DNA of 64,000 nucleotides from Minisyncoccota bacterium (GCA_021734995.1 JAIPHX010000001.1:52590-116589), one strand, 5' to 3'. Positions 844 through 38,509 are shown, counted from the stretch's first letter. Translations and numbers: made by a program. Notes: generated from the letters alone by a model not told the origin.

Positions 844-3435
844 ATGACAAACAAAAAACAAGAAAAAGCAATAGAAAGCATTGTGGTAAAAGGGGCTAGA
901 ACCCACAATCTTAAGAATATTTCAGTAGAAATGCCACGCAACAAAATGGTAGCAATAACAGGGGTTTCTGGTAGTGGCAAAAGCTCTCTGGCTTTTGATA
1001 CTATTTTTGCGGAAGGGCAAAGAAGATATGTAGAGTCTCTTTCTTCTTATGCTCGTCAGTTTTTAAATCAAATGCCAAAGCCAGATATAGATGAAATTAC
1101 AGGGCTTTCTCCTGCTATCTCTATTGACCAAAAATCTCGTTCCAACAATCCTCGTTCTACTGTGGCTACGATTACAGAGATATACGACTATCTTCGGGTA
1201 ATGTATGCCCGTATTGGTCATCCTCACTGTCCTACTTGTGGGGAAGAAATTAAAAAACTTTCTAACGAAGAAATTTTTAATTTTGTTTTAGAAAAAGCGA
1301 GTAGTCTCTTGAAAGAAAACAAAAACAAAAAAAGTGTTATGGGAGTTTCTTGGAATGAAACTGAAATAAATATTTTTTCTCCCGTAGTGCGGGGAAGGAA
1401 AGGGGAATACTATCAGCTTCTATACGATCTATTAGGGAAAGGTTTTTCAGAGGTGCGTCTTGATGGAAAAATGAAAAAATTGCGTGAACAAATAATTTTA
1501 TCTAAACAAAAAAAACACAACATAGATATCTTGGTAGATAGATTTTTGTTGCAAGATTTTAATACAGAAAAAGAAGGAAGTAGAATGCGTTTATCTGAAG
1601 CAATAGAAAGAGCTTTGCTTGAATCTGATGGGTTAGTAACTATTGTGATTGGAGACATAGAATTTGTGATGTCTGCAAAGTTTGCTTGTAAAAATGATGG
1701 ATTTTCTTTTCCTGAAGTAGAGCCAAGACTTTTTTCTTTTAATTCTCCATACGGAGCTTGTCCTGCTTGTAATGGTATCGGTACTAAATATTTTGGGGGA
1801 GAAGAGTTGTGTGAGTCTTGTAATGGAGCGAGACTTAGGACTGAAGCACTGAATGTTTTTTTACATTCTGATGTAAATATTCTAAAGGTATCTTCAATGT
1901 CTATCGCCGAAGCATCTGAGTTTTTTAAAAAATTAAAATTAACTGAAAAAGAAAAAGAAATTTCTTTACCCGTAGTAAAAGAAATACAAGCAAGACTTCA
2001 GTTTATGCTAGATGTTGGACTAGACTACTTACAGCTTTCTCGTAAAGCAAATACTTTGTCTGGAGGAGAAGCCCAGCGTATTAGGCTTGCTTCTCAGCTT
2101 GGCTCACGTCTAGTAGGAGCTTTGTACGTATTAGATGAGCCGACTATTGGTCTGCACCAAAGAGATAATGATAGATTGATTAAAACTCTTTTAAATCTTC
2201 GGGATTTAGGGAATACTATTTTAGTAGTAGAACATGACGAAGACACTATTTATGCCTCAGACTATATTGTAGATATTGGTCCTAAAGCAGGAGTGCATGG
2301 AGGAGAAGTGGTAGTCTCTGGGTATTTAGAAGATCTTTTGACTGCTAAAAAAAATCAAAGTGGCTCTAGGACTTTGGCATATTTGCGAGAAGAAATCCAA
2401 ATTCCAATTCCAGAGAAGAGAAGAGAGGCAAAGGGGTTTTTGAAAATAGTAGGGGGAAAGGTTTTTAATATAAAAAATTTAAATGCGGAGATACCTCTCG
2501 GAGTGATCACATCTATTACAGGTGTATCTGGCAGTGGGAAAAGCTCTTTTATGTATGAGATATTGCATAAAAATTTACAAGGAAGACTAGAAAGAAAATA
2601 TCGCACTGCTAGAATTTTTAATTGTGCTTCTTTTACAGGGACAGAATATCTTTCTAGAAATGTTTTGATTGATCAGTCGCCCATTGGTCGCACTCCTAGA
2701 TCAAACTTAGCTACATACACAGGGGCCTTTACCCATATTAGAGATTTGTTTGCTTCTACTGAGGATGCTCGTCTTCGTGGCTGGAAGGCAAATAGATTTT
2801 CTTTTAATGTAAAAGGAGGGAGGTGTGAAGCATGTGAAGGGAATGGGGAGATTGCAGTAGAGATGCACTTCTTGCCCACAGTATATGTTACCTGTGATGT
2901 GTGTAATGGAAAAAGATTTGACAAAGAGACACTGACTGTAAAATACAAAAAAAAGAATATTTATGAAATTTTGAAAATGACAGTGGAAGAAGGCCTACCT
3001 TTCTTTAAAGACATTCCTGAGATACATGATAGATTGAGTACTTTGATGGGGGTGGGGCTTGGGTATTTGGAGCTTGGGCAGACCGCTACCACTCTTTCGG
3101 GGGGAGAAGCACAAAGAGTGAAAATATCTTCTGAACTATTTCGTTCACATGCAGAAAAGACTATTTATATGCTTGATGAGCCTACTGTGGGGTTGCATTA
3201 TGATGATGTGGCAAAGTTGCTTGAAGTTTTGAATAAGCTTGTATCAAAGGGGCATACTGTAGTGTTGATTGAACACAATCTAGATGTTATCAAAAACTCG
3301 GATTATGTTTTAGATATTGGCCCTGAAGGAGGTGTTGGGGGAGGAACATTAGTAGCAAAAGGCACACCAGAAGAAGTAGCCAACAATCCAAAAAGTTATA
3401 CAGGAAAATATTTGAAGAAAGTTTTGAGAAGGTAA
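844..3435 (+). CDS. uvrA: Excinuclease ABC subunit A (863 aa, compact)
   Basis: Two ABC ATPase modules with Walker A ([14 protein letters not shown] and [10 protein letters not shown]), ABC signature (LSGGEAQR twice) and zinc-finger Cys pairs ([28 protein letters not shown]). Confidence 0.9.
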
Positions 3436-3501
3436 CAACTTTTTTGGTGGACTTAAAAAACATTTTTTAAAAGATTAAAGCTGTGAAGATAGTATATAAA
3501 A

Positions 3502-4719
3502 ATGGAAAAGAAAGATTTAAAAAAATATAAGATCCCAGACAGGTCAGGAGTGTATTTCTTTTTGACAGGTAAGAAAACTTTATATATTGGTAAAGCTACT
3601 TCTTTAAAAAGCAGAGTAGCGAGCTATTTTACAGAGGATTTGATTTTTAAAAGAGGACCTTTGGTAAGTGAAATGTTGGCTAAGGCAAATAATATCAAGT
3701 GGCAAGAAACAGAAAATGTGCTGGAAGCTTTAGTGCTTGAAGCGCATTTGATTAAGAAAAATCAACCCAAGTATAATACTGAGGGGAAATCTGATAAAAG
3801 TTTCAATTATGTATGTATCACAAAAGAAGAAATTCCAAAAGTTCTTTTGGTTCGTGAAAGAAAATTAGCTTTTGAAAAAGATTTGTATAAATATTATTTT
3901 GGTCCATTTACCAACGGAGCCCAACTAAAAGAAGGAATGAAGATAGTGCGTAGAATCTTTCCGTATTTTGATGCTGTGTCACAAAAGAAATCAAATTACT
4001 CTTTCTATAAACAAATTGCTTTAGCTCCAGACACAGAAAAAGAAAATTGGCAGGAAATGTATCAAAAGAATATTCAAAACATAAAGCTTTTTTTTGAAGG
4101 TAAAAAACAAACCATTTTGAAAGATTTAGAAAAAGAAATGAAGAGGTTTGCTAAAGAAAAAAAGTTTGAATTAGCAGGAGAAGTAAAAAGACAAATTTTT
4201 GCTTTGAAGCATATAAATGATGTGGCTTTATTAAAAACTGATAATTTATATATAAATAATAATAATGATATATTTAGGATTGAAGCATATGATATTGCTC
4301 ATATGTCTGGTAAAAATATGGTAGGAGTGATGACTGTGTTGGAAAATGGACAAGCAGTCAAAAGTGAATACAGAAAGTTTATAATACGTACAAAGGTACA
4401 AGCAGATGATACAGGAGCCTTGAGTGAAGTGTTGGAAAGAAGAACAGGTCATCCAGAGTGGAGGTTTCCAGATGTGTGGGTGATGGATGGAGGGGTGGCC
4501 CAGCTTAATGTGGCAAAAAATATTTTAGGACAAAAAGGAATAAGGGGGGCTATCGTGTCGGTGATCAAAGATGAGCGACATAAACCAAAAAGTATTGGCG
4601 GAGATGCAAATATTGCTCGCAAGTATCAAAGAGAAATTTTAATGGCAAATAGTGAAGCTCATCGATATGCAATAAACTTCCACAAAGATTTAAGAAATAA
4701 AAACTTTTTAAAAAAATGA
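3502..4719 (+). CDS. uvrC: Excinuclease ABC subunit C, short form (405 aa) with GIY-YIG, UVR and C-terminal endonuclease domains; no (HhH)2 tail
   Basis: GIY-YIG motif (GVYFFLTGKKTLYIGKATSLKSRVASYF), a UVR-like helix (KEMKRFAKEKKFELAGEVKRQIFALKHI), and an RNase-H-like C-terminal region (IEAYDIAHMSGKN...VMDGGVAQLN). Confidence 0.8.
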   Translation: MEKKDLKKYKIPDRSGVYFFLTGKKTLYIGKATSLKSRVASYFTEDLIFKRGPLVSEMLAKANNIKWQETENVLEALVLEAHLIKKNQPKYNTEGKSDKSFNYVCITKEEIPKVLLVRERKLAFEKDLYKYYFGPFTNGAQLKEGMKIVRRIFPYFDAVSQKKSNYSFYKQIALAPDTEKENWQEMYQKNIQNIKLFFEGKKQTILKDLEKEMKRFAKEKKFELAGEVKRQIFALKHINDVALLKTDNLYINNNNDIFRIEAYDIAHMSGKNMVGVMTVLENGQAVKSEYRKFIIRTKVQADDTGALSEVLERRTGHPEWRFPDVWVMDGGVAQLNVAKNILGQKGIRGAIVSVIKDERHKPKSIGGDANIARKYQREILMANSEAHRYAINFHKDLRNKNFLKK

Positions 4720-5207
4720 AAAATAATAAAACACAAAATGATGAACAAGAAAATATTGTAATCGTTCACAATATACGAAGTGCTGAAAACATTGGCTCTA
4801 TTTTTCGGACCTCTGATGCTAGGGGAATCAAAAAGATATATCTAGTAGGGGTCACTCCTTTGCCAGTAGATAAGTTTGAAAGAATAAATCCTAAAATAGC
4901 AAAGACTTCTTTGGGAGCAGAAAAAAGTGTTTCTTGGGAATGGAAGAGAAACATCTTGCCGTTACTTCATAAATTAAAAAAAGAGGGATATCAACTAATT
5001 GCTATTGAACAAGATAAAAATTCTGTAAATTATAAAAAACTCAAATTGAAGAATAAAAATGCTTTTATTCTTGGTACAGAAGTGGAAGGATTGCCCAAAA
5101 ATGTGCTGTCTGCGTGTGATGTGATTGCTGAGATACCAATGCATGGTAAAAAAGAATCTTTGAATGTAGCTGTCTCTTTTGGGATTGTGGTGTTTGATAC
5201 TTTGTAA
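4716..5207 (+). CDS. SpoU/TrmH-family RNA 2'-O-methyltransferase (163 aa)
   Basis: SPOUT motifs (VHNIRSAENIGSIFRTSDARGI ... IPMHGKKESLNVAVSFGIV). Its start overlaps the uvrC stop (ATGA). Confidence 0.7.
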   Translation: MKNNKTQNDEQENIVIVHNIRSAENIGSIFRTSDARGIKKIYLVGVTPLPVDKFERINPKIAKTSLGAEKSVSWEWKRNILPLLHKLKKEGYQLIAIEQDKNSVNYKKLKLKNKNAFILGTEVEGLPKNVLSACDVIAEIPMHGKKESLNVAVSFGIVVFDTL

Positions 5208-5264
5208 TCCCGCAGGGATTTAGGTGTGTTCTTGGTGTAGGATTTTAGTTTTTCAAAAAGTAAA

Positions 5265-6203
5265 TTATTTTTGATGTAGATTACAAAAATGAGCACTTCT
5301 CCCATTTATTACTTTTCTGTGGATTATACCAGAACAATTTTTTAGTAAACATTTTTGTCCTGTGCGTCTATATGCCTTGTGGTGCATTTGGAATTTCCCA
5401 GGGAGTCCATAGATATTGCGATAATCAGACATAGAATCTCCTCCAAAGTCTATCCCTTTTTTTAATATTTTTTGCATCCATGTGTGAATGTTTTTGATTT
5501 CTGTATCAGATAATTTAGAGACTATCTTTTCTGGATGAATGTTTGCGTGAAATAAAATTTCATCAGAATATATATTGCCTACACCTACCAAGACGGATTG
5601 ATCCATCAAAACTGTTTTTATTTTCCCTGTTGGTCTTTTACTCAGACAGACTTTTAATGTTTTGGAGATAAAAGATTTTTCTAGTGGTTCTGGCCCTAGA
5701 TTTTTTAAGTGCTTGCTCTGATAAAGCTTTTCTGTTTCTAGTAAAGTTATTTTACCAAATTTTCGCATATCCGAAAAAGCTAAATGTTTTCCATTTGATA
5801 AAGAAAATACCACGTGCACAAATCTATTGAAAGGATCACTCAAAGCCCCTTCTTTTTCATAGTTGATGTTTTTGATATTTTGAGATTTGGGTATCCATTT
5901 GTTTTCATTTGGAACAAAAACATAAGTACCATACAGGAGATGCCCGGTCATTTTTAAATGTATTAAAATACTTTTTTTATTAGATAAATGAAGCAAAATA
6001 TTTTTTGCCCTCCTTTCTGCTTGAAGTATTTTAGTGTTTAAGATTTCTTTTTTAAAAAGAGGGAAGTGTCTTGGATTGGCGACGGTGTCTGCTTTTCTTT
6101 TGTCTTTTGTTTTTAAATCTGTCCAAACATCAAGGATTTTTAATCCCACTACTTCTACCCGCAATCCTTTTGTGGTTGTTTCTACTTCTGGTAATTCTGG
6201 CAT
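5265..6203 (-). CDS. mutM: Formamidopyrimidine-DNA glycosylase (Fpg/Nei family)
   Basis: N-terminal MPELPEVE with catalytic Pro2 and Glu, an H2TH region, and a C-terminal zinc finger (CLLKNCSGIIHRKVINGRSAHFCNLHQK). Confidence 0.75.
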   Translation of the reverse strand: MPELPEVETTTKGLRVEVVGLKILDVWTDLKTKDKRKADTVANPRHFPLFKKEILNTKILQAERRAKNILLHLSNKKSILIHLKMTGHLLYGTYVFVPNENKWIPKSQNIKNINYEKEGALSDPFNRFVHVVFSLSNGKHLAFSDMRKFGKITLLETEKLYQSKHLKNLGPEPLEKSFISKTLKVCLSKRPTGKIKTVLMDQSVLVGVGNIYSDEILFHANIHPEKIVSKLSDTEIKNIHTWMQKILKKGIDFGGDSMSDYRNIYGLPGKFQMHHKAYRRTGQKCLLKNCSGIIHRKVINGRSAHFCNLHQK

Positions 6204-6204
6204 G

Positions 6205-6774
6205 TTACTTACCCCCTAATATTTTTAAAGCTTTTTTAATTTTTAAATTAGTGTTGTCTTCACTTGGGATGTTTTTTAGAGCTTCTCTTGCTTCGTTTTG
6301 TCCATAACCCAAAGACTTTAATGCTTCCAGAGTATCTATCTCTTCTTGGAGGTATGCATGGTCAGGGTTGTCATCTTTCATTTTATCTCTCAATTCTAAG
6401 ACTATTTTTTCAGCTGTTTTTCTTCCAATCCCAGATACTTTAGTGAGATAAGCAGTATCTCCAGTGCTGATTGCTTTGATAAGAGTATCAGAAGAAGCGA
6501 TGGCTAGTATGCCTAGTGCGCTTTTTGGACCAATACCAGATACATTTAGAAGTAGTTCAAATATTCCCAATTCTTTTCTTTCTGGAAATCCATATAGATC
6601 TAAGGCGTCTTCTCTGGCATGAGTGTAAATCCAAAAATGAGATTCTGTATTTTTGTTTAGCAGTGGATTGTTTATAGTGAATATTTTATAGCCCACCCCA
6701 CCAGTCTCTACAATGACATATTTTTCTGCCTCAAATATTATTTTCCCTCTAATGCTTCCTATCATATAATACAT
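6205..6774 (-). CDS. ruvA: Holliday junction DNA helicase subunit RuvA
   Basis: N-terminal MIGSIRGKI...GGVGYKIF OB domain, HhH motifs (VSGIGPKSALGILA, VSGIGRKTAEKIVLEL), and a C-terminal domain III. Confidence 0.8.
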   Translation of the reverse strand: MYYMIGSIRGKIIFEAEKYVIVETGGVGYKIFTINNPLLNKNTESHFWIYTHAREDALDLYGFPERKELGIFELLLNVSGIGPKSALGILAIASSDTLIKAISTGDTAYLTKVSGIGRKTAEKIVLELRDKMKDDNPDHAYLQEEIDTLEALKSLGYGQNEAREALKNIPSEDNTNLKIKKALKILGGK

Positions 6775-6858
6775 ATTATCACATCCTTATATTTTTAGCT
6801 TTTCTGTCAGCTTGCGTGGTTTGTTGCAAATTAAATGATTTTCTGATAGATTATATCT

Positions 6859-7110
6859 ATGCCAATAACTAAATCAGCTAAAAAAGCGATTAGAGGATCC
6901 CTTCGCAAGAGGGTTTTTAATGATCACAATAAGCGTTCCGTAAAGGAAGCTATTAAGAAGGTTGAAAAGACAGCTAAGACTAGCAAAGAAGAGGCCGTAA
7001 AATTTCTTTCTTCAGCTTATGCCGCGATAGATAAAGCAGCAAAAAGAGGAGTAATAAAGAAAAATACAGCTTCTCGCAAGAAGTCCAAATTAGCTAGATC
7101 TCTAAAATAA
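6859..7110 (+). CDS. rpsT: 30S ribosomal protein S20
   Basis: MPITKSAKKAIRGSLRKRVFNDHNKRS...; typical basic S20 composition and length. Confidence 0.85.
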   Translation: MPITKSAKKAIRGSLRKRVFNDHNKRSVKEAIKKVEKTAKTSKEEAVKFLSSAYAAIDKAAKRGVIKKNTASRKKSKLARSLK

Positions 7111-7374
7111 ATGTCTCATTTATTAGAATTTTATGGTACAGAATGTCCTCATTGTGTGGACATGCATGAGCTCGTGCAAAAACTAGAAAAAGAGGAAGGA
7201 GTCAAGGTGGAAAGATTGGAAGTGTGGCACAACAAAGAAAATGAAAAAAGATTACTTGAGTTAGATAAGGATTTGTGTGGGGGAGTTCCTTTTTTATATA
7301 ACACTAAAACAGATAAATGGATTTGCGGAGAAGTAGATTATTCAGAGTTGAAAGATTGGGCAAAAGGGGAATAG
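7111..7374 (+). CDS. Small thioredoxin-fold (glutaredoxin-like) protein with a CPHC active site
   Basis: 87 aa, YGTECPHCVD redox motif, thioredoxin-fold length. It starts immediately after the rpsT stop. Confidence 0.6.
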   Translation: MSHLLEFYGTECPHCVDMHELVQKLEKEEGVKVERLEVWHNKENEKRLLELDKDLCGGVPFLYNTKTDKWICGEVDYSELKDWAKGE

Positions 7375-7402
7375 TAAAAACAAAAAAATCAAACACAAAA
7401 AA

Positions 7403-7425
7403 ACGGACTTTTGATCCGTTTTTGT
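7403..7425. terminator. Bidirectional rho-independent terminator hairpin between convergent genes
   Basis: aacggac-ttttga-tccgtt stem-loop followed by a T-run (tttttgttgtgg), with an A-run upstream. Confidence 0.5.
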
Positions 7426-7446
7426 TGTGGCACATATGTTGAAGTT

Positions 7447-7570
7447 TTAATGATTTGTCGGTGGTGGTGTTCTTCGCTCGTTGTTGTCATAGTACCCACC
7501 ATTGTTTACATGATTTGTTGGTGGAGGCATTCCATGCCCGTTGTTGTTTTCATAGTACCCACCGTTGTTC
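7447..7570. repeat. About 60-bp tandem duplication encoding the repeated cytoplasmic tail of the surface protein
   Basis: atttgt[c/t]ggtgg...catagtacccacc[a/g]ttgtt[t/c]acatg occurs twice in tandem. Confidence 0.5.
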
Positions 7571-10500
7571 ATGCGAACGTTCTGACGTTCATTTTCTTTA
7601 GACATTGCATACATTCTATTTTCAGCTGACTTTCCATACAACCATCTTACAAGGGCAATCAATAGTAGGATGATAAGGATGAATAGAAGCCATCCGATAA
7701 GAGTAGTTGGCCAAAAACCATATCCAAAGATAGAAGCAGCTCCAAGATTTATACTATTTTGTCCTTCTCTTATGATATTTCTAGAATAAGCGAAGACTTC
7801 TTCTTGGTTTTCATTATCAACAATAGTATATGAAAGGTTTGCAGTTATCACTATTGTTTTGTTTATTTCAGTAGTTTCTCTTACTCTAATTGTGACTCTG
7901 AAAGATCCTTCTTCTTGAGAGAATAGATCTCCAATATTCACAGTAAGGATATTGTCATCAGAATAGTAAGATCCGCGTGTACTTTCTAAGAATTCAAATT
8001 CTCCAGGAAGAGCAACACGAACCACCACACTTTTTAGATTTCTAGAAGATACGTTTTTGTAACGTACTACATAATCCAACACTTCACCTTGTCTAACTGA
8101 TTCTTCATCTCTGGATATATCAAGCCATACCAATGAAGCTCTTGAAGTACCAGAATATGTATTTGAAGAAGAATTACTTACTACAGTGGTATTGCTGTAT
8201 GTTGTGGTTTGACCTCCACCTGTGTAAGAAACAAAGTTACCAGTTCTAAACACTTTATAGTCTCCTCTGTAAGTCCCTGTAGAAGCAGTGACGACACCTC
8301 TGTAATAATATGTAGTATTTGGTGATAAACCACTTACTGAATCATTAAAGGCGATAGATTGCCCACTACCAATAGATTTACTTTGAGTTGTAGAACCTAG
8401 AGAATAACTTGTACCATATTCAAAGTATCCATTTAAGTTTTGAATATTTGAATAGTTGAAAGCGATAGCATTTAATCTTGCACTTGTTTGACCAACATTG
8501 GAAGCAACAATTGTAGATATTGTAATGAGATTATCACCATTGATGATTCCTCCACATGTTCCATAATAAGTACAATCATATACAGGAGGGGGAACATAAC
8601 CACCACCACCGCCACTTCCACCAGAAGATCTTGTTCTAAAGCTTAATATGTTTCCATACTTAGTGCCATTTTCAGAGTTTCTTCCTACTGCACGGAAATA
8701 GTAAGTAGTGCTGGAATTTAAGTTTGAAATACTTTCGCTAAAATTTCCAGAAACATCACTATCATCTTTCACTGTAGTTTTATTAAGAGAGTCTCTGTTT
8801 GTGCCATACTCAAACCAAGTAGTTGTGTCAATTCCAGCTGTATCTACATATCCATTTAAGACTGCAGTAGATCTTTCTATAGAGCTTGCCTCGTAAGTAG
8901 TGATATATAAATCACAATCATCATAAGTGGTGCCACATTCTTCTCCATCATTTAAAGTTCTAAAACTTCTTTCATCACCATACACCACTCTTCCATTAGT
9001 GTTTTGTGCAGCAGCTCGGAAGTAATATGTAGTGTCAGATTGTAAACCATTTAAAGTATAGCTATAATCAGTTCCGGTAGTAGATCCTATATATGTGCTA
9101 GAAGTTTCGTTGTAATAGTTTGAACCAGATTTTTTCCACTCAAACCATCCTTTTGTATCTGTCCCATAATTGGAGTTTACAAAACCTCTTAATGTCCCAG
9201 AGTCTGAATCAATATTTGCAGCAGAGTTTGTGGTTACTAAAGGATTTGTGTTTGTCGCTGAAGTAACTGTAATTGTAAGATCTTCTGAGTCTGTAGAACC
9301 GTTGTTTCCATAACAAGTGATTCTGAAAAGAGTTGTTGCGCTTATTGTTCCAACATAAGTAGATCCAGAAACAGGTTTTTCTATATTAGATGTCCAGTTT
9401 GTCCCACTTCCCAAAGAAGAGATACAGTAGTTTCCATTTTCAGCTGTCCAACTAATAGTAGAATATCCACTTCCATTTGTTAGAACAGAAGGAGAAGCTG
9501 TAAACGTTGTAATGTTTACTCCTTGAGGATTGGGGTCATTCATTGCTTCACAATATGTTCCGTTCCAAGTTGTAGCAGAGGCACAAGAAGCACTAGCTTC
9601 TTTTCTATCAAGAAGATCTGTTCCATTTCTTAATTCAAATAAATTTACCCCTTCATTGATATTTACTTCCAGCCCTCTAGTATTGGAAATTGTTTGAGCT
9701 AATTTTGTTTCTATCCCTTTATATTTTTTGAAAACCCCAGGATTAGAAGCATTGCTTGTACTCCATTTTAGAATTACTTCGCAGGCATTTTGGTCTTTTG
9801 GAATGATACAGCTATTTGTATCAATGTTTAATACACCAGAAGCGACTTGAGTGTTATAGTTTGCTTGGATTGTTCTTGAAGCTGTAGCAGTATCTCCATT
9901 TACCCCCATACATTTTATACTGTATGTAGTATTTGTAGATAAATGTCCTGTATCAAAAGGATTTGATCCGCTGTTTGTTCCAATGTTTAAGTTTCTCCAA
10001 GTAGTAGTTCCTTCTCTTGCTTCACAAGATATTGCATTGGAAGATGTCCATCTTATATATGTAGGAGCTTGAATGCTGTCTGAAGTAAGATTTACAGAGA
10101 CTAGAGGAGTGCTATTTATTGTACAGACACTTCCGTTCCAGTTTGAATTCCCTGCACAGCTTGCAGTGGCAGTTTTAGATGATAGGGTAGTATTGTTGTG
10201 CTTTAATGTAAAGGTAGTATTTGGATAAGAGACTTTAGTGCTTACATAATTACCACTTAAAGAGTTTGAAATATTTCCATATTTATCACTAGTAACACTT
10301 ATTCCTGAATTTGCATTTTGAGTACTCCAGTTGATAGAGATATTACAGAAGCTAGAGTTTGTAGGAATGATACAGCTTGATTGATTTAGAGTTAGATTAC
10401 CTGTAACCACTAATGTAGGAGGAGGGGTTGAATTTACTCTTACTGTAACGCTAGCTACTTGAGAAGCACTTCCAGGAGTATTTGTGTCTTCGCATCTAAT

Positions 10501-17695: not shown

Positions 17696-19423
17696 ATGGA
17701 TACATCAAAAACACCAAAATTTGATAATGCTATAGATAAAATATTAGCAAATCTAAAACCTCACAAAAGAATATGTGAGCAATGTGAAGTAGAGTTTGAA
17801 TTTTTGGATACGGATATTGAATTTTTTAATAAATTTAAGGTTCCACCACCTAGGATGTGTTCAGATTGTCGCAGGCAAAGGAGGTTGGCTTTTGTAAATT
17901 ACACAACTCTTTTTAAGAGAATTTGTAATACACCAACGCATGATGAAAAGATAATTTCTTCAATTCCAGAAGGAACAGAATTTCCAGTTTATGATTTTGA
18001 TTCATATTGGCACGGTGACAGAGATTGGAAAGAATATGGAAAAGATTTTGATTTTAATAAATCTTTTATAAAGCAGTTTAAGGAATTATTTATTAAATCG
18101 CCTCAACCTGCACTTACTCGCAACCCAGAGAGTATTGATAGTGATTATACTTCATATGGGGTTCAACTAAAAAATTGTTATTATGTTTTTGGCGGAATGA
18201 ATGCTGAAAATATTATGTACACTGTCTGGCCTATGATGGTTAAAGATTCTGCAGATTTTCTTATTGCAGTAAACACGGATTTATCGTACGAAGGTGTATA
18301 TCCAGAAAATTGTTATAACTGTAATTTTGTATATTTTTCAAGAGATTGCGTAGATTGTAATTTTACTTTCGATTGCAGGAATTGTAACGACTGCTTTGCT
18401 TGTGTAAATTTGAGAAGTAAAAAATATTGCATTTGGAATAAACAATATTCTAAGGAGGATTACTTTAAAGAAATATCAAAAATTGATTTGGGAGATCAAG
18501 AAACATTAAAAAAATATAAATTAGATTTTATGAGTTTTGTAAAAAAATTACCAGTGAGAGCTACTCGAAATGAACATTCGGAAAATGTATCAGGTAATTA
18601 TCTAATAAATACAAACAATTGTTACAGTACAATGTGGGCAATGAATTCTGAAAATTTAAGTTTTACTGATTTTGTATTAAGATTAAAAGATTCATATGAT
18701 TGTACTGTTTCAGCTGTTGCTGAGAAATTATACAGTACATCAGGTGTCGGGAATAATTGTTTTGATGTAAGGTTTTCTACTTTTGGGAGAGATGTTCGTG
18801 AGTGTGAATATATAATGAATTGTAAAAATTGCACAAATTGTTTTGCTTGCATTGGTCTTGTTAATGCTAAGTTTTGTGTTTTTAATAAACAATATGAAGA
18901 AAGTGAATATTGGAATTTAGTTGATGAAATAAAAACAAAAATGTTAGAAGATAATGAATATGGAGAATTTTTTCCAATGTCAGTAAGCCCCTTCCCTTAT
19001 AATGCCTCTCTTGCAAATATTATTTATCCATCATCTAAAGAAAAAATTCTTAAGTTAAATGGTTGGTGGCATGATGAAGAGTCCGATTTTCCAAAAGGAA
19101 TAGAATTTACAAAAGTTAAAGATATTGAACAAAATATAAAAGATATTTCGGATGTTATTTTAAATAAAGGAATAATAAGCGATAATAATGGTAAACCGTT
19201 TAGAATAACAGAAAGAGAACTTGATTTTTATAAACGTAAGCAAATATCAATTCCAAATATTACTCCATACGAACGTATAATAAATCGCTTTTCTTTTGTT
19301 AATAACTTTAATCTTTTTAAAGATCAGTGTTTCAAATGTAAAACAGAGATTTTGAGTAGCTACGATACAAAAAATGGATTTAAGCCATACTGTGAAAAAT
19401 GTTATCAGCAAGAAGTTTATTAA
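17696..19423 (+). CDS. Cysteine-rich protein family member 1 (575 aa) with N- and C-terminal CxxC...CxxCR zinc-ribbon modules
   Basis: N-terminal CEQCEVEF...FFNKFKVPPPRMCSDCRRQRR; central DCVDCNFTFDCRNCNDCFACVNL...NKQYSKEDY and CKNCTNCFACIGL...NKQYEESEY repeats; C-terminal FYKRKQISIPN...CFKCK...KPYCEKCYQQEVY. Paralogous to the CDS at 32838, 36809 and 38620. Confidence 0.7.
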   Translation: MDTSKTPKFDNAIDKILANLKPHKRICEQCEVEFEFLDTDIEFFNKFKVPPPRMCSDCRRQRRLAFVNYTTLFKRICNTPTHDEKIISSIPEGTEFPVYDFDSYWHGDRDWKEYGKDFDFNKSFIKQFKELFIKSPQPALTRNPESIDSDYTSYGVQLKNCYYVFGGMNAENIMYTVWPMMVKDSADFLIAVNTDLSYEGVYPENCYNCNFVYFSRDCVDCNFTFDCRNCNDCFACVNLRSKKYCIWNKQYSKEDYFKEISKIDLGDQETLKKYKLDFMSFVKKLPVRATRNEHSENVSGNYLINTNNCYSTMWAMNSENLSFTDFVLRLKDSYDCTVSAVAEKLYSTSGVGNNCFDVRFSTFGRDVRECEYIMNCKNCTNCFACIGLVNAKFCVFNKQYEESEYWNLVDEIKTKMLEDNEYGEFFPMSVSPFPYNASLANIIYPSSKEKILKLNGWWHDEESDFPKGIEFTKVKDIEQNIKDISDVILNKGIISDNNGKPFRITERELDFYKRKQISIPNITPYERIINRFSFVNNFNLFKDQCFKCKTEILSSYDTKNGFKPYCEKCYQQEVY

Positions 19424-31347: not shown

Positions 31348-31564
31348 CAGCAGTCAGCGACTAAAAAATAGACCGATACGGTATGGGTTTTTCTATATTC
31401 GCCCAAAATCTGGTTCTAGACTCTGAAGGTCTAAAAATCAATTATATCTTTTAATTTCAACTTAAAATATGAAAACTTAAAAGTTCAAGTCCTTGAAGGT
31501 CACCATTAGTAGATGTCTCAAAAGACTGGAGTGTTTTATTGGTGATTTTTGATATAATAAAAAT

Positions 31565-32707
31565 ATGAAAATTCCAATAGTGGATGAAAATGATAATATT
31601 ATAGAATATAGAGAAAGAGATAATCGTGATTTAAATGCTATTTATCGTGTTTCTTCTTTGTGGATTACTGATACTGATGGAAATATTTTACTTGCTCGTC
31701 GTGCTTTTAATAAAAGCCATGACCCTGGTAAATGGGGTCCTGCAGTAGCTGGAACGGTTGAGGAAGGAGAAACTTATGAGCAGAATATAATAAAAGAAGC
31801 AGAAGAAGAAATAGGATTAAAGGATATCAAGCCTATTGTTGGGATTAAAAAACGTAGAAATGCTAAGTGGAATTATTTCGTTCAATATTTTCTACTAACC
31901 CTACCGGTAGGATTTAATAATTTCAAAATTCAAGAAGATGAAGTTGCCGAAATTAAATGGTTTCCTGAAGAAAAACTAAGAAAAGAATTAAAAGAAAATC
32001 CAGATGAGTTTCGAAAAGGTATTCATGAGAGAATGAATGAATCTATTAAACATGTAATAATTTTTTCTCATGGATTTGGAACTCGGAAAGACGATCGTGG
32101 ACTTTTTACTGATATTGCAGAGGGGTTTCCTGGAACAGAATCCATACTTTTTGACTATAATAGTGTTGATGAAACAGAGAATACTCTAACTGCTTGTTTA
32201 TTATCTGAGCAAGCAAGAATGTTAAATGATGTAATTGAAAAAGCATATATAGATAATCCAGAGGCAACGATAGATATTATTGGTCATTCACAGGGATGCT
32301 TGGCGGTGTCTCTTGCAAAACCACAAGGAATTCATAGAACTATTTTTGTTGCACCTTCTTTAGATACAGACATAGAGCATACAATTGAGATGTTTAAGGA
32401 GCGGGCAGGAACAGAGATAAATTTATCTGGTATATCAAGGCTGGCACGTAAAGATGGAACTGTTACGTTGGTCCCTGCTCTGTTTTGGGTAGAAAGAAAA
32501 CAATCTGATCCAATTTCTTTATATAATGAATTATCCAACAAAACTGATTTAATCATTATAAATGCAAAGCAAGATGAAATATTTGGCCATACAAATACTC
32601 AAGGATTAGATAAAAAAATTGAGATTATAAATATTGATGGGAACCATCAGTTTTCAGGGGAATCAAGACAAGTATTGATAGATAAAATAAAGATATTACT
32701 AGAATAG
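31565..32707 (+). CDS. Fusion protein: N-terminal Nudix hydrolase and C-terminal alpha/beta-hydrolase
   Basis: Nudix box GTVEEGETYEQNIIKEAEEEIGL; alpha/beta-hydrolase nucleophile elbow IIGHSQGCLAV, and HGFGT near the domain start. Confidence 0.65.
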   Translation: MKIPIVDENDNIIEYRERDNRDLNAIYRVSSLWITDTDGNILLARRAFNKSHDPGKWGPAVAGTVEEGETYEQNIIKEAEEEIGLKDIKPIVGIKKRRNAKWNYFVQYFLLTLPVGFNNFKIQEDEVAEIKWFPEEKLRKELKENPDEFRKGIHERMNESIKHVIIFSHGFGTRKDDRGLFTDIAEGFPGTESILFDYNSVDETENTLTACLLSEQARMLNDVIEKAYIDNPEATIDIIGHSQGCLAVSLAKPQGIHRTIFVAPSLDTDIEHTIEMFKERAGTEINLSGISRLARKDGTVTLVPALFWVERKQSDPISLYNELSNKTDLIIINAKQDEIFGHTNTQGLDKKIEIINIDGNHQFSGESRQVLIDKIKILLE

Positions 32708-32837: not shown

Positions 32838-34565
32838 ATGACTCCAGAAATAAAGAACTGCCAGAACTGCAAAAAAGACTTCACTATTGAGATAGATGAC
32901 TTTTCTTTTTATGAAAAAATAAAGGTTCCGCCTCCGACTTGGTGTTCAACATGTAGATTTCTCCGAAGAGCAGTTTTTAGAAATGAAAGAAAACTTTTTC
33001 GAACTATTAATGCAGTTACAGAGAAACCAACACTCTCTATTTACCCTGCAGAATCTGGATACACCATATATGATGATAATTATTGGGGAAGTGATAATTG
33101 GGACCCTTTTTCTTATGGAAGAGATTTTGACCGTTCGAGACCTTTCTTAGCTCAACTTTTTGAGCTGAATCAAGAAATTCCACACCCTCGCGTTAGTACA
33201 CTTAATATGATTAGAAGTGAATACTCTGCAAACGCTGTTGATCTTAAGGATTGTTATTTGCTTTTTAATTCTAATAACTCAGAAAATTCAGCATATGGTA
33301 ATGGTATAGATTTTTCGAACAATTGCTTTGATACTTCTCACATTAAACAATCAGAAAGATGTTATGAATCTTTCTGGCTTACCAAATGTTACGAAACGTT
33401 CTTTTCTTCTCAGTGTGAGAATTGTGTATCAGTTTGGTTTTCTAAAAATTGTCAAGGTTGTACAAATTGCTTTGGGTGTGTAAATTTAGTGAATCAATCA
33501 TATTGTTATTTTAATAAACAACTATCGAAGGAAGAATATTTATTAACAATAAAAGAATTGGAGCTTGAGAAATTCTCTAATTTAGAAAAGATTCAAAAAG
33601 AAAGTAGGGAATTCTGGCTTAAATTTCCAGTGAAGTATTTTACTGGAATGAAAAACGTTTTTTCTTCAGGAGAATATATTACTCATTCAAAAAACGTTCG
33701 TAAAAGTTTTCTTGTGAGAGAGGGTGAAGATTTAAAGTATGTGCAGTACTCCCAAGTGGGTTATTTGCGTGATGTGATGGATGTGACTGTTGTTGCAAAA
33801 AGTGAAATTGTTTATGAATCAAGTATCTCTGGCTGGGACTCAGCTCAGCTTAAGTTTTGTTGGGAATGTTGGGATGGAGGAATTGATTTCGAGTACAGTA
33901 TGTTTTGTGGGAGAGGAGCAAGTCATATTTTTGGTTCAGTTGCCATAAGTAGTGGAGAGTATATTATTCTCAATAAACGTTACTCTAAAGAAAATTTTTT
34001 TAAACTTCGAGATGAAATAAAGCAACACATGAATGAAATGCCATATATCGATAATCAGGGTCGTGTATATAAGTATGGAGAATTTTTTCCACCCGAGTTT
34101 AGTCCTTTTGCTTATAATGACACTATAGCCCCCGAGCACTTTCCTTTTTCAAAAGAAGAAATATTATCTTTTGGCGCAAAATGGTACGAAGTTCCAAAAG
34201 GAGAGTATGGAACAACCATAGGTGCGAGAGAGTTACCCGATAATATTGATGATGTAAAATCTGATCTTCTTGAAGAAGTTATATCTTGTGCTGACTGCAA
34301 AAGAGGATATAGAATAATTTCTTTTGAACTAGATTTTTTAAAAAATCACAAAATTCCCATACCTAGATATTGTGTTGATTGTCGTTACAAAAAAAGAATT
34401 TCTCAGAGAAACAAAAATATTTTTTATAATAGATCATGCATGTGTACAAATGAAGAGCATTTTCATGGAGTAAATAAGTGTCAAATTGAATTTGAAACGA
34501 GTTACTCCCCAGAAAGACCCGAGATAGTGTATTGTGAATCTTGCTATCAGAAGGAGGTTTATTGA
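32838..34565 (+). CDS. Cysteine-rich protein family member 2 (575 aa)
   Basis: N-terminal CQNCKKDFTIEIDDFSFYEKIKVPPPTWCSTCRFLRRAVFRNER; central CENCVSVWFSKNCQGCTNCFGCVNL; YGEFFPPEFSPFAYNDTIAPEHFP; C-terminal CADCKRGY...FLKNHKIPIPRYCVDCRYKKR...PEIVYCESCYQKEVY. Confidence 0.7.
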   Translation: MTPEIKNCQNCKKDFTIEIDDFSFYEKIKVPPPTWCSTCRFLRRAVFRNERKLFRTINAVTEKPTLSIYPAESGYTIYDDNYWGSDNWDPFSYGRDFDRSRPFLAQLFELNQEIPHPRVSTLNMIRSEYSANAVDLKDCYLLFNSNNSENSAYGNGIDFSNNCFDTSHIKQSERCYESFWLTKCYETFFSSQCENCVSVWFSKNCQGCTNCFGCVNLVNQSYCYFNKQLSKEEYLLTIKELELEKFSNLEKIQKESREFWLKFPVKYFTGMKNVFSSGEYITHSKNVRKSFLVREGEDLKYVQYSQVGYLRDVMDVTVVAKSEIVYESSISGWDSAQLKFCWECWDGGIDFEYSMFCGRGASHIFGSVAISSGEYIILNKRYSKENFFKLRDEIKQHMNEMPYIDNQGRVYKYGEFFPPEFSPFAYNDTIAPEHFPFSKEEILSFGAKWYEVPKGEYGTTIGARELPDNIDDVKSDLLEEVISCADCKRGYRIISFELDFLKNHKIPIPRYCVDCRYKKRISQRNKNIFYNRSCMCTNEEHFHGVNKCQIEFETSYSPERPEIVYCESCYQKEVY

Positions 34566-34646
34566 TTACTCAGCCATCTTTCTTGTCGTATTTTATAATA
34601 ACATGCTGACATAGTCAGCTGGTTTTGTTTGTGATATTATCATCTT

Positions 34647-35264
34647 ATGAAAAAGAACATAATTATTGCTATTTTGGTAGTTTTATTAGTTGTTTCGTTG
34701 AGCTTTGTGTTTTTTGGAAGTAAATCTTCAAAAGATGAGATTAGTGATTTGTCGCAATTAAATTATCAATTTACCGACAAAGACACAAGAGAGAATAGTG
34801 CTCAAAATAGTATGGAGACATCTAGTGCTGTGGGTAAGGTTACTCCAAAATATGAAGATACAGCAGAATCAAAAATTGTAAGCGAAAAATCTTCTGCCTA
34901 TTTGACAAGTTTTGAACAAAGAAGTGATGGATATTATTATTTAAGTTTTGATTATGTTAGTTTTGGTCAAGATCAAGCAGGTGCTGTGACTCCTGTAAAT
35001 AATAATTCTAAAACAAGAACATTTAGAGCATCTAAAAATTTGAAAGTTGGATACGATTTTACAAATGAATTTAATGGGAATAAATTTTATACAATTTCTC
35101 AATATCTACCTCTTTTGACAAAGAAAGGTAACTTTTTGTGGAATCCAACTATCCAAGAAGATTCTTCTTTCCTGCATAACGGGCTTTATCAGATTAAAAT
35201 TGAAAAAGGGGAAGTTGTACAAATGTATGAAGGAGGAGATTTTTCTAAACCTCAAGGTCTTTAG
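34647..35264 (+). CDS. Hypothetical membrane-anchored extracytoplasmic protein (205 aa)
   Basis: N-terminal TM/signal anchor (IIIAILVVLLVVSLSFVFFG); no motifs. Confidence 0.45.
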   Translation: MKKNIIIAILVVLLVVSLSFVFFGSKSSKDEISDLSQLNYQFTDKDTRENSAQNSMETSSAVGKVTPKYEDTAESKIVSEKSSAYLTSFEQRSDGYYYLSFDYVSFGQDQAGAVTPVNNNSKTRTFRASKNLKVGYDFTNEFNGNKFYTISQYLPLLTKKGNFLWNPTIQEDSSFLHNGLYQIKIEKGEVVQMYEGGDFSKPQGL

Positions 35265-35326
35265 ATGTTGGTTGGAGACTTCTTTATTGACTTAAGCATA
35301 TTCTATTTTTTTGATATAATACACAT

Positions 35327-36787
35327 ATGACAGGACAAGAGGGCTTACCAATTAAAATTAAAGTACCAGAGGCTAATTTGCCTAACGTAGAGGGGTTAAA
35401 GGCTGAAGGGTTATCAAAACCCAAGCTAGATGTTCCTGGCATTATTCAAGCAAATGATGCAAAAATTGCAGAGTTAGGTGCTGTAGCAAAGACTACTGGG
35501 GAAAAAATAGAAGGGCTAAGAGCTCAATTGGGGCTAGATCCAAATTCAAATCCAAACCTAGAAGTTCCACCTAGTATCGCTTACATACAAGAAAAAAGAA
35601 GAGAATTAGAAGAAAAAAATAAAAAGCTGTTGGCTGGATCTCCTAATCAGCAAGGGGTAGAACAAGGGGTAGCAGAACAAGGGATAACAGAAGCGGGTCA
35701 AGCGGGGGAAAAAGGAATGGGAGAAGTTCCTGCAGGAAAACCACGCGAAGATTTACCTGAAAATCCTGAAAACTCTGAAAATGCCCAAAAGCCAGAAGCT
35801 CCAGAAGAAGCCCCTAAGCAAGAGCCGTCACAAGATCAAGAAAAAAATAAAAATCCTGAAGAAAAAGAAGATGAAATATCAAAAGAGGTAATAGAAAGAT
35901 TGTCTGCAGTAATGCAAGCAAAAAAAGCACTGGAAGCAAGGGTGGCAGGACTCAAAGACTCACCAGCTTTTAAAGCCTTTGAAGCAAAAAACAAAGACTT
36001 AGATGAAAAAAGAAAAAAACTAGAAGGTCTAAAGAATACTATAAACAATGGAGGAGGAGGAAGCGGGGGAGGAGTTACTTCATTAGAGGGCTCAATATCA
36101 TTTAGTGGTGCTGTCGATTCAACATCAGGGCAAGAGGATTTACAAAATGGCGAGGCTTCTCCTGAGAAAAGTGCAGTTGATTTAGAACAAGAAGTAGAAA
36201 ATTTAATAAAGAGAACTGAACTTGAAGTTTTAAAATTAGAAAAAGAAGAGATGGAATTTGGGGAAGATGGTTTGCAGATAAAGGCAAAAGAAATGGATCT
36301 TGAAGAAAAAGCTATTGAAACTGAAACAGAAATATGGAGTGCTGGTGGTATGAACCAAGAAACTTTCAACAAAACGTTGCAAAATATCAATAATTCTGAA
36401 TTTGACCAAAGTACCATTAAAAATCGAGACACCTTTGTAAGATTTATGTTGGCTGAAAACGAAATGGAATCTTTTAAACAAGAAAATAATGATTATTATC
36501 AAAGCTTGGAAGTAAAGCAAACAGAAATAGAATCAAAAGAATCTGAGTTGGAAGGAGTAGAATATCCAAATGAAAATAAAATTATAGGGATTTTAGCAGA
36601 GCATGCTATTGAAAAAGAAGAAGGAGAAGAAGGACCAAAAAATCTTGATGGTGAAAAAATAGCTGAGACAGCTGGAGCAGAAAAACCTCCTTCCGATAAT
36701 GGGATAGAAACAAGCGACCCCGCTCAGAATATGGATATTCCTATTGTTGCTGGGGGTGAAAAAAATCCTGGTGAAGTTTATAAATAA
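35327..36787 (+). CDS. Hypothetical acidic, low-complexity/coiled-coil protein (486 aa)
   Basis: Glu/Lys/Pro-rich, PE(N/A)PE repeats, a Gly stretch NGGGGSGGGV, and no TM segment. Confidence 0.45.
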   Translation: MTGQEGLPIKIKVPEANLPNVEGLKAEGLSKPKLDVPGIIQANDAKIAELGAVAKTTGEKIEGLRAQLGLDPNSNPNLEVPPSIAYIQEKRRELEEKNKKLLAGSPNQQGVEQGVAEQGITEAGQAGEKGMGEVPAGKPREDLPENPENSENAQKPEAPEEAPKQEPSQDQEKNKNPEEKEDEISKEVIERLSAVMQAKKALEARVAGLKDSPAFKAFEAKNKDLDEKRKKLEGLKNTINNGGGGSGGGVTSLEGSISFSGAVDSTSGQEDLQNGEASPEKSAVDLEQEVENLIKRTELEVLKLEKEEMEFGEDGLQIKAKEMDLEEKAIETETEIWSAGGMNQETFNKTLQNINNSEFDQSTIKNRDTFVRFMLAENEMESFKQENNDYYQSLEVKQTEIESKESELEGVEYPNENKIIGILAEHAIEKEEGEEGPKNLDGEKIAETAGAEKPPSDNGIETSDPAQNMDIPIVAGGEKNPGEVYK

Positions 36788-36808
36788 TATAAATAAAATT
36801 TTAAACAT

Positions 36809-38509
36809 ATGAAGACAAACTGCCAGAACTGCAAAAAAGACTTCGATATTACAAAAAACGACTTGGGATTTTATGAAAAAATAAAGGTTCCGTCTCCGAC
36901 TTTTTGTCCTGAATGTAGAATGATACGAAGGATGGCTTGGAGAAACGAAAGGCATTTGCACAAAAATAAATGTGATATTTGTAAAGAAAATATAATCTCA
37001 ATATACAGCGAGGATTCCCCATATAAAGTTTTATGTGGCTCTTGTTTCCATGGAGATGCATGGAATCCTTTTGATTATGAGATGGAAATAGATTTTTCAA
37101 AACCTTTTTTACAACAGGTAAAAGAATTACAGTTAAAAGTGCCAAGACTATATTCTTTTGTTTTCCAAAATACAAATAGTGAATACACAAACGGGGCAGC
37201 TTTCAATAAAAATTGTTATCTTATTTTTGTGAGTGACTACGATGAAGATTGTGCATATTGTTACTCTACTACTAATTCCAAAAATTCCCTTGATCTTTTT
37301 AATTCTACTGAAAATGAATTGTGTTATGACTCTTCTTCTTGTGTGAAGTGTTTTGCTGTTTCTTTTTCTGAAGATTGTGCCTCTTCCCAAAATTTAATTT
37401 TTTGTAAAAATTGCAATAATTGCAGTGACTGTATTGGATGTGTAAATTTGAGAAATAAAAAGCATTGTTTGTTTAATGAGCAACTAACAGAAGAAGAATA
37501 CAAACAAAAAAAGAAAGAGTTAAATCTTGAAAATAGGGAAAGTTTGAAATCATTAGAAAAACAAGCGCGAGAAGTTTGGAGTAAATATCCATTGAAATAT
37601 ATACATGGTTTAAAAAACATAGATGTCATGGGGGATTACACAAATAATTCCAAAAACTCTAGTTTTGTTTTTGATTCAAACTCAGTGGAAGATTCTAAAT
37701 TTTTAAATTTTGGTAGTAAAATAAAAGATTCGCAAGATGCGTATGTTTTAGTGGATGGTTCAGAATTATGTAATGAGATTGTAAGTGGTATTACTTTAAG
37801 CAACGCGAAATGTAGCTATTGTGTTTGGGTTGGATTTAATATTTCATATTCTGATACTTGCGAAAATTCCAATAATTTATTTGGCTGTGTGGGAGTTAGA
37901 AAAGGAGAATATTGCATTTTGAATAAAAAGTATTCCAAAGAAGAATATGAGCAACTTGTAGAAAAAATTATAAAACATATGAATGATATGCCTTATGTAG
38001 ATGAAAAAGGGATTGTGTATAAATATGGTGAATTTTTCCCCATAGATTTAAGTCCTTTTTCTTATAACGAAACTATCGCTCAAGAATATTTTCCCTTAGA
38101 AGAAAAGGAAGCTTTAGAAAAAGGATATAGATGGATGAAGAAAAAAGAAAGAGATTATAAAATAGAGATAAAAAGCGAAGAAATTCCACAAGAGATAGAA
38201 GGTGTAGGGGAAGATATTGTAAATAAAGTAATAGAATGTGCTCACAAGGGGGATTGTAATCATCAATGCACGGAAGCTTTTAGAATAAGGAAATCCGATT
38301 TTGATTTTTATAAAAGATTAAAATTGCCATTGCCAGATTTATGTCCAAATTGTAGGCATACAAAAAGATTTAAAACTCATAATCCTCTTCAGTTTTGGGA
38401 AAGAGGGTGCATGAACAAAGGGTGTCAAAATAAATTTAAAACAACATATTCCCCAGATCGACCAGAAGTGGTGTATTGTGAATCTTGCTATCAGAAGGAG
38501 GTGTATTGA
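36809..38509 (+). CDS. Cysteine-rich protein family member 3 (566 aa)
   Basis: N-terminal CQNCKKDFDITKNDLGFYEKIKVPSPTFCPECRMIRRMAWRNER; central CKNCNNCSDCIGCVNL; YGEFFPIDLSPFSYNETIAQEYFP; C-terminal FYKRLKLPLPDLCPNCRHTKR...PEVVYCESCYQKEVY. Confidence 0.7.
   Translation: MKTNCQNCKKDFDITKNDLGFYEKIKVPSPTFCPECRMIRRMAWRNERHLHKNKCDICKENIISIYSEDSPYKVLCGSCFHGDAWNPFDYEMEIDFSKPFLQQVKELQLKVPRLYSFVFQNTNSEYTNGAAFNKNCYLIFVSDYDEDCAYCYSTTNSKNSLDLFNSTENELCYDSSSCVKCFAVSFSEDCASSQNLIFCKNCNNCSDCIGCVNLRNKKHCLFNEQLTEEEYKQKKKELNLENRESLKSLEKQAREVWSKYPLKYIHGLKNIDVMGDYTNNSKNSSFVFDSNSVEDSKFLNFGSKIKDSQDAYVLVDGSELCNEIVSGITLSNAKCSYCVWVGFNISYSDTCENSNNLFGCVGVRKGEYCILNKKYSKEEYEQLVEKIIKHMNDMPYVDEKGIVYKYGEFFPIDLSPFSYNETIAQEYFPLEEKEALEKGYRWMKKKERDYKIEIKSEEIPQEIEGVGEDIVNKVIECAHKGDCNHQCTEAFRIRKSDFDFYKRLKLPLPDLCPNCRHTKRFKTHNPLQFWERGCMNKGCQNKFKTTYSPDRPEVVYCESCYQKEVY

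Follow-up and report, generated by a model that had tools for sequence, protein, structure and literature searches.

We analysed a stretch of 64,000 nucleotides, hereafter the window, from a Minisyncoccota bacterium (GCA_021734995.1, JAIPHX010000001.1:52590-116589), which carries four paralogs, P1 to P4, of a single protein of 553–575 amino acids, all on the same strand and in DNA that is AT-rich (31–36% GC over most of the window). Two of them, P2 and P3, share near-identical nucleotide runs at both gene ends, and the origin of these runs is the subject of this report. A tblastn search of the window found the four full-length copies, listed here, as the only genes of the family.

17696–19423, plus strand: paralog P1, 575 amino acids, 15 kb upstream, with the family consensus tail EKCYQQEVY
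32838–34565, plus strand: paralog P2, 575 amino acids
36809–38509, plus strand: paralog P3, 566 amino acids
38620–40281, plus strand: paralog P4, 553 amino acids, with no silent-site identity to P2 or P3

At the amino acid level, P2 and P3 are 41% identical overall and 37% identical in the core, with the remaining paralog pairs at 30–34%. Two unrelated genes (34647–35264 and 35327–36787) lie between P2 and P3, and P1, which bears no trace of conversion, served as an internal control. Each of the four proteins consists of an N-terminal CxxC...CxxC zinc-ribbon-like domain, a Cys-rich repetitive core that is probably a beta-solenoid, a second zinc ribbon near the C-terminus, and an almost invariant tail (...RPEIVYCExCYQxEVY). 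The nucleotide identity of P2 and P3 falls into three patches, two at the 5' end and one at the 3' end.

P2 32856–32882 and P3 36818–36844, plus strand: 5' patch 1, 27 nt identical, AACTGCCAGAACTGCAAAAAAGACTTC
P2 32907–32940 and P3 36869–36902, plus strand: 5' patch 2, 24 nt identical, a C/T difference, then 9 nt identical
P2 34527–34565 and P3 38471–38509, plus strand: 3' patch, 38 of 39 nt identical, TGA stop codon included

In a codon-aware alignment of the two genes these are the only exact runs of at least 12 nt, all of them at gene ends. Patch 1 encodes NCQNCKKDF and does so with seven minor, C- or G-ending codons. Patch 2 encodes FYEKIKVP[P/S]PT, its 24-nt part being TTTTATGAAAAAATAAAGGTTCCG (32907–32930 and 36869–36892). 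The 3' patch begins with 32 identical nucleotides (GTGTATTGTGAATCTTGCTATCAGAAGGAGGT, 34527–34558 and 38471–38502), followed by a T/G difference and TATTGA; it encodes VYCESCYQKEVY and the stop codon, with which the similarity between P2 and P3 ends. The DNA immediately outside the two reading frames is unrelated. With up to three mismatches allowed, no copy of any run was found in the window besides the P2 and P3 sites, and none in dinucleotide shuffles. An earlier note on this DNA had described identical runs at the ends of the two genes, rich in C-ending codons despite an AT-biased genome, and both observations hold: AAC, TGC, CAG, GAC and TTC each make up only 17–22% of their synonymous sets in the window and are thus minor codons. 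The same note correctly gave the second 5' run as 24 nt with a C/T difference behind it, but the identical stretch that follows is 9 nt long and not 10. A further candidate patch at alignment columns 507–543 was discarded; its same-codon score is elevated (z=2.97), but no run is seen there and only common codons are involved.

Several tests agree that the silent identity of P2 and P3 is confined to their ends and significant. Across the whole pair, the same codon is used at 149 identical residues against 121.9 expected from window codon usage (z=3.8), whereas the five other paralog pairs are at expectation and hence saturated. The excess sits in the first ~45 aligned codons (20 of 20 matching against 11.9 expected). 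Nulls were generated by resampling synonymous codons, either from genome-wide usage or from the position-specific usage of 215 members of the family in other genomes. Of the 29 residues that are identical within the N-terminal 45 codons, 27 have the same codon, a level reached in 0 of 50,000 simulations (P<2e-5); for the 32-nt C-terminal run, resampling gave P=0.005 with genome-wide and P=0.001 with position-specific usage, and the longest simulated runs averaged 11–15 nt. For the P2–P3 pair, synonymous divergence (dS) by the Nei–Gojobori method (NG86) amounts to 0.36 over the 42 N-terminal codons and to 0.26 over the final 13 codons, versus a saturated 1.74 in the core, and in the other five pairs it is saturated throughout, the same conserved ends included. 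Finally, a Sawyer/GENECONV-type permutation test in our own implementation, covering 1,194 polymorphic sites of the four-paralog codon alignment and all six pairs, flagged P2–P3 only, and there the two ends only: the 5' fragment corresponds to patch 1, with 19 concordant polymorphic sites in a row (global P<1e-4), and the 3' fragment has 13 sites (global P=0.008). The earlier note had held that protein-level constraint alone does not account for the silent identity and had proposed to compute dS in sliding windows and to run GENECONV. The matching codons, a dS that is far from uniform along the pair, and a permutation signal seen in no other pair all bear out this claim.

The paralogs themselves are old. 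Orthologs of P2 occur at 55–72% amino acid identity in many other genomes of the candidate phyla radiation (CPR), and the best core identities found abroad are 0.71 for P2, 0.50 for P3, 0.53 for P4 and 0.40 for P1, as against 0.31–0.37 within the window. The comparison with orthologs that the earlier note had called for thus places the P2 core at 0.71 to its best ortholog elsewhere and at only 0.37 to P3; since it is closer to foreign orthologs than to its neighbor, the split between P2 and P3 must predate the divergence of those lineages. With a split of such age silent sites should have been randomised, and the identity at the ends is therefore recent. In the N-terminal region, the true orthologs of P2 share 82–87% of its residues and P3 only 64%, yet the longest N-terminal runs shared with those orthologs (14–20 nt) are shorter than that shared with P3. 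Among 207–211 family members compared, it is P3 that supplies the longest run of P2 at both ends (27 nt versus 20 nt for the next best, and 32 nt versus 23 nt). The earlier note had further read the divergent middle as the freely diverging core of a diversifying multigene family. This part is not supported: the cores are old, stable orthogroups with closer relatives abroad than in the window, there are no donor cassettes in the window, and the nearest neighbor of a core almost never comes from the same genome.

The pattern is not peculiar to this locus. We assembled one set of 79 loci from species-representative genomes together with two contigs bearing P2 orthologs and the window (219 members, threaded on one profile at the codon level), and a second set of 79 independent metagenome contigs (133 members), which makes 352 members in all; pairs of the first set were counted below 60% amino acid identity. 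In this first set, runs of at least 27 nt at the N-terminus occur in 19 of 353 within-genome pairs versus 86 of 23,157 between-genome pairs (Fisher P=1.6e-15), and in the tail in 7 of 353 versus 34 of 23,157 (Fisher P=2e-6), whereas the core shows no excess (2 of 353 versus 105 of 23,157, Fisher P=0.48). The second set behaves likewise, with 17 of 112 within versus 62 of 8,483 between genomes at the N-terminus (P=1e-16), 8 of 112 versus 22 of 8,483 in the tail (P=3e-9), and no within-genome excess of runs in the core. Over both sets, terminal runs of this length are 15–27 times commoner within than between genomes, and about one third of the genomes or contigs with at least two copies carry one (19 of 53 and 10 of 28). 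Nearest neighbors tell the same story: by nucleotide sequence, 10% of N-termini and 13% of tails have their closest relative in their own genome, compared with 1% of cores and 1.8% of second zinc-ribbon regions, and with 1.6% expected by chance. Shared codon bias as the source of the within-genome excess was ruled out, because the N-terminal excess survives controls matched for GC content at third codon positions to within 0.02 (13 of 2,538, P=2e-10) and because neither the core nor the second zinc-ribbon region shows an excess. When different genomes are compared, conserved residues share their codons about as often as expected (ratios of 0.97–1.07 in all regions and 0.97–1.05 at the ends), and hence there is no family-wide constraint on the ends at the nucleotide level.

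The position of the tracts varies from genome to genome, from profile columns 5–14 through 26–37 at the N-terminus and over columns 521–553 at the C-terminus, and their length ranges from 24 to 84 nt (up to 63 nt in the first set and 84 nt in the second). They also take in non-conserved residues, as in the 45 nt encoding CQNCKKDFVIDAEDF in two adjacent genes of locus L002 that are 38% identical overall. Adjacent gene pairs are hit more often than non-adjacent ones (13 of 97 versus 8 of 182, P=0.009).

Two further features distinguish the gene ends. In the window plus loci L001–L158, two-fold codons end in G or C more often at the ends than in the core of the same gene (0.321 versus 0.258 for the N-terminus, profile columns 6–50, and 0.358 versus 0.267 for the tail, columns 531–553; Wilcoxon P about 1e-22 each, with 339–343 of the 352 members tested), and the excess of G-ending Gln and Glu codons at the ends has no counterpart in an internal conserved island. 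Such an enrichment is what GC-biased gene conversion could produce in an AT-rich CPR lineage, but it is no proof of it. The tail peptide, moreover, differs between genomes. ESCYQKEVY is present in P2, P3 and P4, and these three copies are three of only four in the first set; the tails of the orthologs of P2, P3 and P4 mostly read EKCYQQEVY, and genome-specific endings occur elsewhere (..EVI in JAXOUH01 and ..EVA in MHPU01). In the tail of P4 (40240–40281) the serine is encoded by AGT, where P2 and P3 use TCT, and the Cys, Tyr and Gln codons differ as well. This could be the trace of an old conversion and a later, unusual switch between codon families, or else of convergent selection on the peptide; the same tail written in different codons hints that the tail peptide is under genome-specific co-selection.

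We favor the explanation, to which we assign a probability of roughly 80%, that P2 and P3 are ancient paralogs and that interlocus (ectopic) gene conversion, acting in short tracts, recently copied the ends of one over those of the other. The earlier note had likewise proposed recent conversion of the termini, and the low dS at the ends, the permutation test, and the coincidence of old paralogs with recent silent identity all support it. At least three patches of about 27–39 nt would have been transferred. The zinc-ribbon N-terminus and the C-terminal tail appear to be the most conserved parts of the protein, and protein constraint together with AT-biased codon usage would hold their DNA at ~70% identity between paralogs; across genomes, baseline nucleotide identity is 0.66–0.72 in columns 6–35 and 0.71 in columns 542–553, against 0.43–0.50 in most of the core. 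Identity of ~70% may suffice for an occasional homologous pairing of nearby copies on the same strand, upon which short heteroduplex or repair tracts would copy one sequence over the other. RecA-dependent exchange in bacteria can make do with some 20–30 bp of identity, which is about the size of the patches in P2 and P3. All paralogs would rely on their ends for one and the same task, which is probably why exchanges there are tolerated, whereas in cores of 50% identity neither pairing nor a tolerated exchange would be expected. At the 5' end, there may have been two separate tracts or a single heteroduplex that was patchily repaired.

A number of observations weigh against this explanation or narrow it. 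The 24 nt between the two 5' patches contain 12 differences, which excludes a single simple tract and calls for two events or patchy mismatch repair. An internal island (columns 371–386, around CILNKQY) has the highest baseline identity of all and only a 2.5-fold within-genome excess, and the bias towards the ends is therefore not accounted for by pairing potential alone; selection probably adds to it, with exchange tolerated or favored where paralogs share a job. The AGT/TCT contrast in the tail of P4 is no harder to reconcile with convergent selection on the tail than with conversion. Scans of genome, metagenome and protein databases returned no relative closer than 72% (P2) or 52% (P3) amino acid identity, and with the closest ortholog at only 72% the conversion events come without a date or a direction. 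The pairs compared in the family-wide tests, finally, are not statistically independent of one another. A bolder extension of the conversion model would hold that homogenisation of the ends is a maintained property of the family, the ends of co-resident paralogs being kept matched because they dock on one another or on a partner that they share. The matching would then be brought about by recurrent conversion in short tracts, possibly with a GC bias, the beta-solenoid cores remaining specialised, and this could apply across thousands of CPR genomes. We consider this extension possible, if doubtful.

Could selection have produced the same picture without any transfer of DNA? The ends might co-evolve with a shared partner or within a hetero-oligomer, such that residues and codons were fixed independently in each gene. 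The genome- or lineage-specific tail peptides and the convergent look of P4, with the same peptide and a Ser codon of the other family, speak for this view, as does the enrichment of C-ending NNY codons at all conserved positions of the family, the internal island included. Such parallel selection cannot, however, yield 27 of 29 identical and mostly minor codons, the joint probability of which is about 1e-10 with position-specific frequencies, and P1 and P4 encode the same conserved motifs by unrelated codons. As the sole cause we regard it as unlikely; it may well complement conversion more than it competes with it, by explaining why the ends tolerate or favor the process. Somewhat less likely again is selection at the nucleotide level, with the runs acting as a cis-acting element within the coding sequence (a target of a regulatory RNA or protein, an mRNA structure, or a signal resembling a ribosome-binding site). 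The 3' run does contain AAGGAGGT, a perfect Shine–Dalgarno-like string that is also present in P4, and genome-specific elements would likewise create identity within but not between genomes. Yet a Shine–Dalgarno-like core precedes only 1 of 39 long open reading frames (ORFs) of the window, and the tails have no start codon within coupling distance, on which grounds we dismissed a Shine–Dalgarno or translational-coupling role of AAGGAGGT. Predicted RNA folds of the four ends are no more stable than shuffled sequences (z = -0.2, -0.55, +0.26 and +1.98), the runs occur in two of the four paralogs only, the tracts elsewhere differ in position, length and paralog pair, and between-genome codon identity at the ends is, as noted, at expectation.

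The two remaining accounts are less probable still. In one, P2 and P3 arose by a recent duplication of the whole gene and the middle then diversified very fast, with the ends as leftover identity; the superficial resemblance to contingency or antigen families with identical ends and a diverged middle is its appeal. We consider it very unlikely, given that dS in the core is saturated, that the flanking DNA shows no similarity, that orthologs of the P2 core (0.55–0.71) and relatives of P3 (up to 0.50) are both closer than P2 and P3 are to each other (0.37), and that 24 nt with 12 differences separate two perfect 5' runs. Unequal crossing-over was rejected on similar grounds, as its expected traces, recently duplicated cores and identity of the DNA upstream, are both absent. 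Least probable of all is an origin by chance, helped by conserved motifs under an AT-biased codon usage, or an artefact of assembly. Conserved motifs in an AT-rich genome do yield runs of 15–20 nt by chance, but the runs observed here use minor codons, and chance is rejected by the simulations, by the permutation test, and by the rank of P3 among the 207–211 comparisons. Misassembly, for its part, can join sequences at repeats but cannot make three separate internal patches in two intact reading frames.

What kind of protein is subject to this process? Searches of Pfam, NCBIfam, PADLOC and PHROGs with the four paralogs and three neighboring genes returned no significant family. The closest hints are matches to zf_Tbcl (PF13451) and zf_Tbcl_2 (PF23477), all below the Pfam gathering threshold (15.9–18.8 bits at the N-terminus, where the cutoff is 24, and 14.8 bits at the C-terminus, where it is 27); together with the CxxC...CxxC spacing, these scores suggest a fold related to the treble clef and nothing more specific. 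The second zinc ribbon is related to the first, as residues 4–54 of P2 match residues 469–519 of P4. The proteins start directly with the zinc ribbon and look cytoplasmic. In a profile search, 5,030 clusters (50% identity) reached E<=1e-3, and 2,161 of them E<=1e-30. The family is nearly confined to CPR/Patescibacteria, the named matches belonging to Paceibacterota, Nomurabacteria, Staskawiczbacteria and similar groups, and its copies usually stand in tandem arrays of 3–8 genes, such as the array at 6537–17137 of locus L002. Full-length members were also found on short contigs binned as an Aenigmatarchaeota archaeon (L061, JAPLUX010000038.1) and as a Gammaproteobacteria metagenome-assembled genome (L071, CAYJLM010000036.1), and many other members of the family carry the label 'Saccharibacteria'; these odd labels are probably errors of binning or labelling and do not indicate a wider distribution. 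The six-gene array of L002 adjoins two genes for VirD4/TrwB-like ATPases (DUF87, TrwB_AAD_bind; 1579–3780 and 4927–6411). One of them bears the treble-clef finger PF23477, to which the C-terminus of the family is a weak match, and the ATPases may be linked functionally to the family through this shared zinc-finger module.

The surroundings of the window's paralogs offer some additional observations. In other genomes the paralogs are mostly directly adjacent, unlike P2 and P3 with their two intervening genes. The first of these (34647–35264) encodes a 205-amino-acid protein with a hydrophobic segment at its N-terminus, and the second (35327–36787) a 486-amino-acid, low-complexity protein rich in E, K, G and P, without a family match. 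Directly upstream of P2, the product of gene 31565–32707 is a fusion: its N-terminal part is a NUDIX domain (E=1e-18), and its C-terminal region has weak matches resembling alpha/beta-hydrolases or lipases. At 34605–34619, 40 nt past the stop codon of P2, there is a GC hairpin with a T-run behind it (GCTGACATAGTCAGC TGGTTTTGTT), which resembles a terminator; the hairpin scores on the minus strand too. Several ORFs are preceded by an extended -10-like motif, TGATATAAT (or GATATAAT), ending 6–8 nt before the ATG, with examples at 31540–31564 and 35302–35326 and at minus-strand starts 51655 and 16721. Such motifs close to the ATG, along with the scarcity of Shine–Dalgarno sequences, suggest that this genome uses leaderless mRNAs or mRNAs with very short leaders.

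The conversion that we propose for P2 and P3 has close parallels. Partial conversion between ancient paralogs has been described for domain 3 of the release factors RF1 and RF2, where exchange was argued to occur in the part in which the paralogs share a function (Ishikawa et al., PMC4530459). As in that case, the paralogs considered here are old and functionally distinct, conversion is placed in the part with a shared function, and the process recurs across lineages and pairs. The differences are that the tracts measure 24–84 nt and do not span a whole domain, that both gene ends are affected, that the genes stand in tandem arrays of 3–8 copies, and that about one third of the sampled genomes are involved, in contrast to rare isolated cases. 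The duplicated tuf genes and the rRNA operons of bacteria are well-known examples of concerted evolution. Conversion between rRNA operons is also treated in PMC8022953 and PMC6002687. There as here, RecA-type exchange between dispersed or nearby copies would keep silent sites identical within a genome; unlike here, homogenisation extends over the whole gene and the copies are functionally equivalent, whereas in the present family only the ends are affected and the cores of P2 and P3 are about 37% identical.

Identical 5' and 3' ends around a variable middle are also a hallmark of the Helicobacter bab/Hop, Anaplasma msp2, Neisseria pilE/pilS and Borrelia vlsE systems. The likeness lies in the near-identical ends flanking a divergent middle, the multiple copies, and the involvement of gene conversion. 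In those antigen families, however, the ends anchor a swapping of the middle from silent cassettes, which creates diversity, while in the family studied here no cassettes are present in the 64-kb window and the middles are stable orthogroups across genomes (0.40–0.71). Nor did we find a sign of exchange or turnover of the core in the two sets, as the 1% of cores with a same-genome nearest neighbor does not exceed the 1.6% due to chance and core runs show no within-genome excess. Our literature search turned up no paper on gene conversion in CPR. The ends of P2 and P3 add a new example to the well-established cases of partial gene conversion between paralogs, one that both confirms and extends what is known of the process; what is distinctive is the combination of very short tracts, the involvement of both gene ends, the tandem arrays, and the recurrence over an abundant, uncharacterised CPR family.

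What is the relevance of such end-restricted homogenisation? The ends of these genes report the genome in which a gene resides and not its orthology, and trees and orthogroup calls should accordingly be based on the core only. The finding marks the zinc-ribbon ends as interchangeable modules with a shared function, whereas the cores would be specialised, which provides a starting hypothesis for a family that spans thousands of sequence clusters. If the proposed mechanism is correct, homologous recombination in the reduced genomes of CPR bacteria would act on tracts of identity of only about 25–80 nt. Should the matching of the ends indeed be maintained, the family would offer a natural case in which to test biased gene conversion in minimal genomes.

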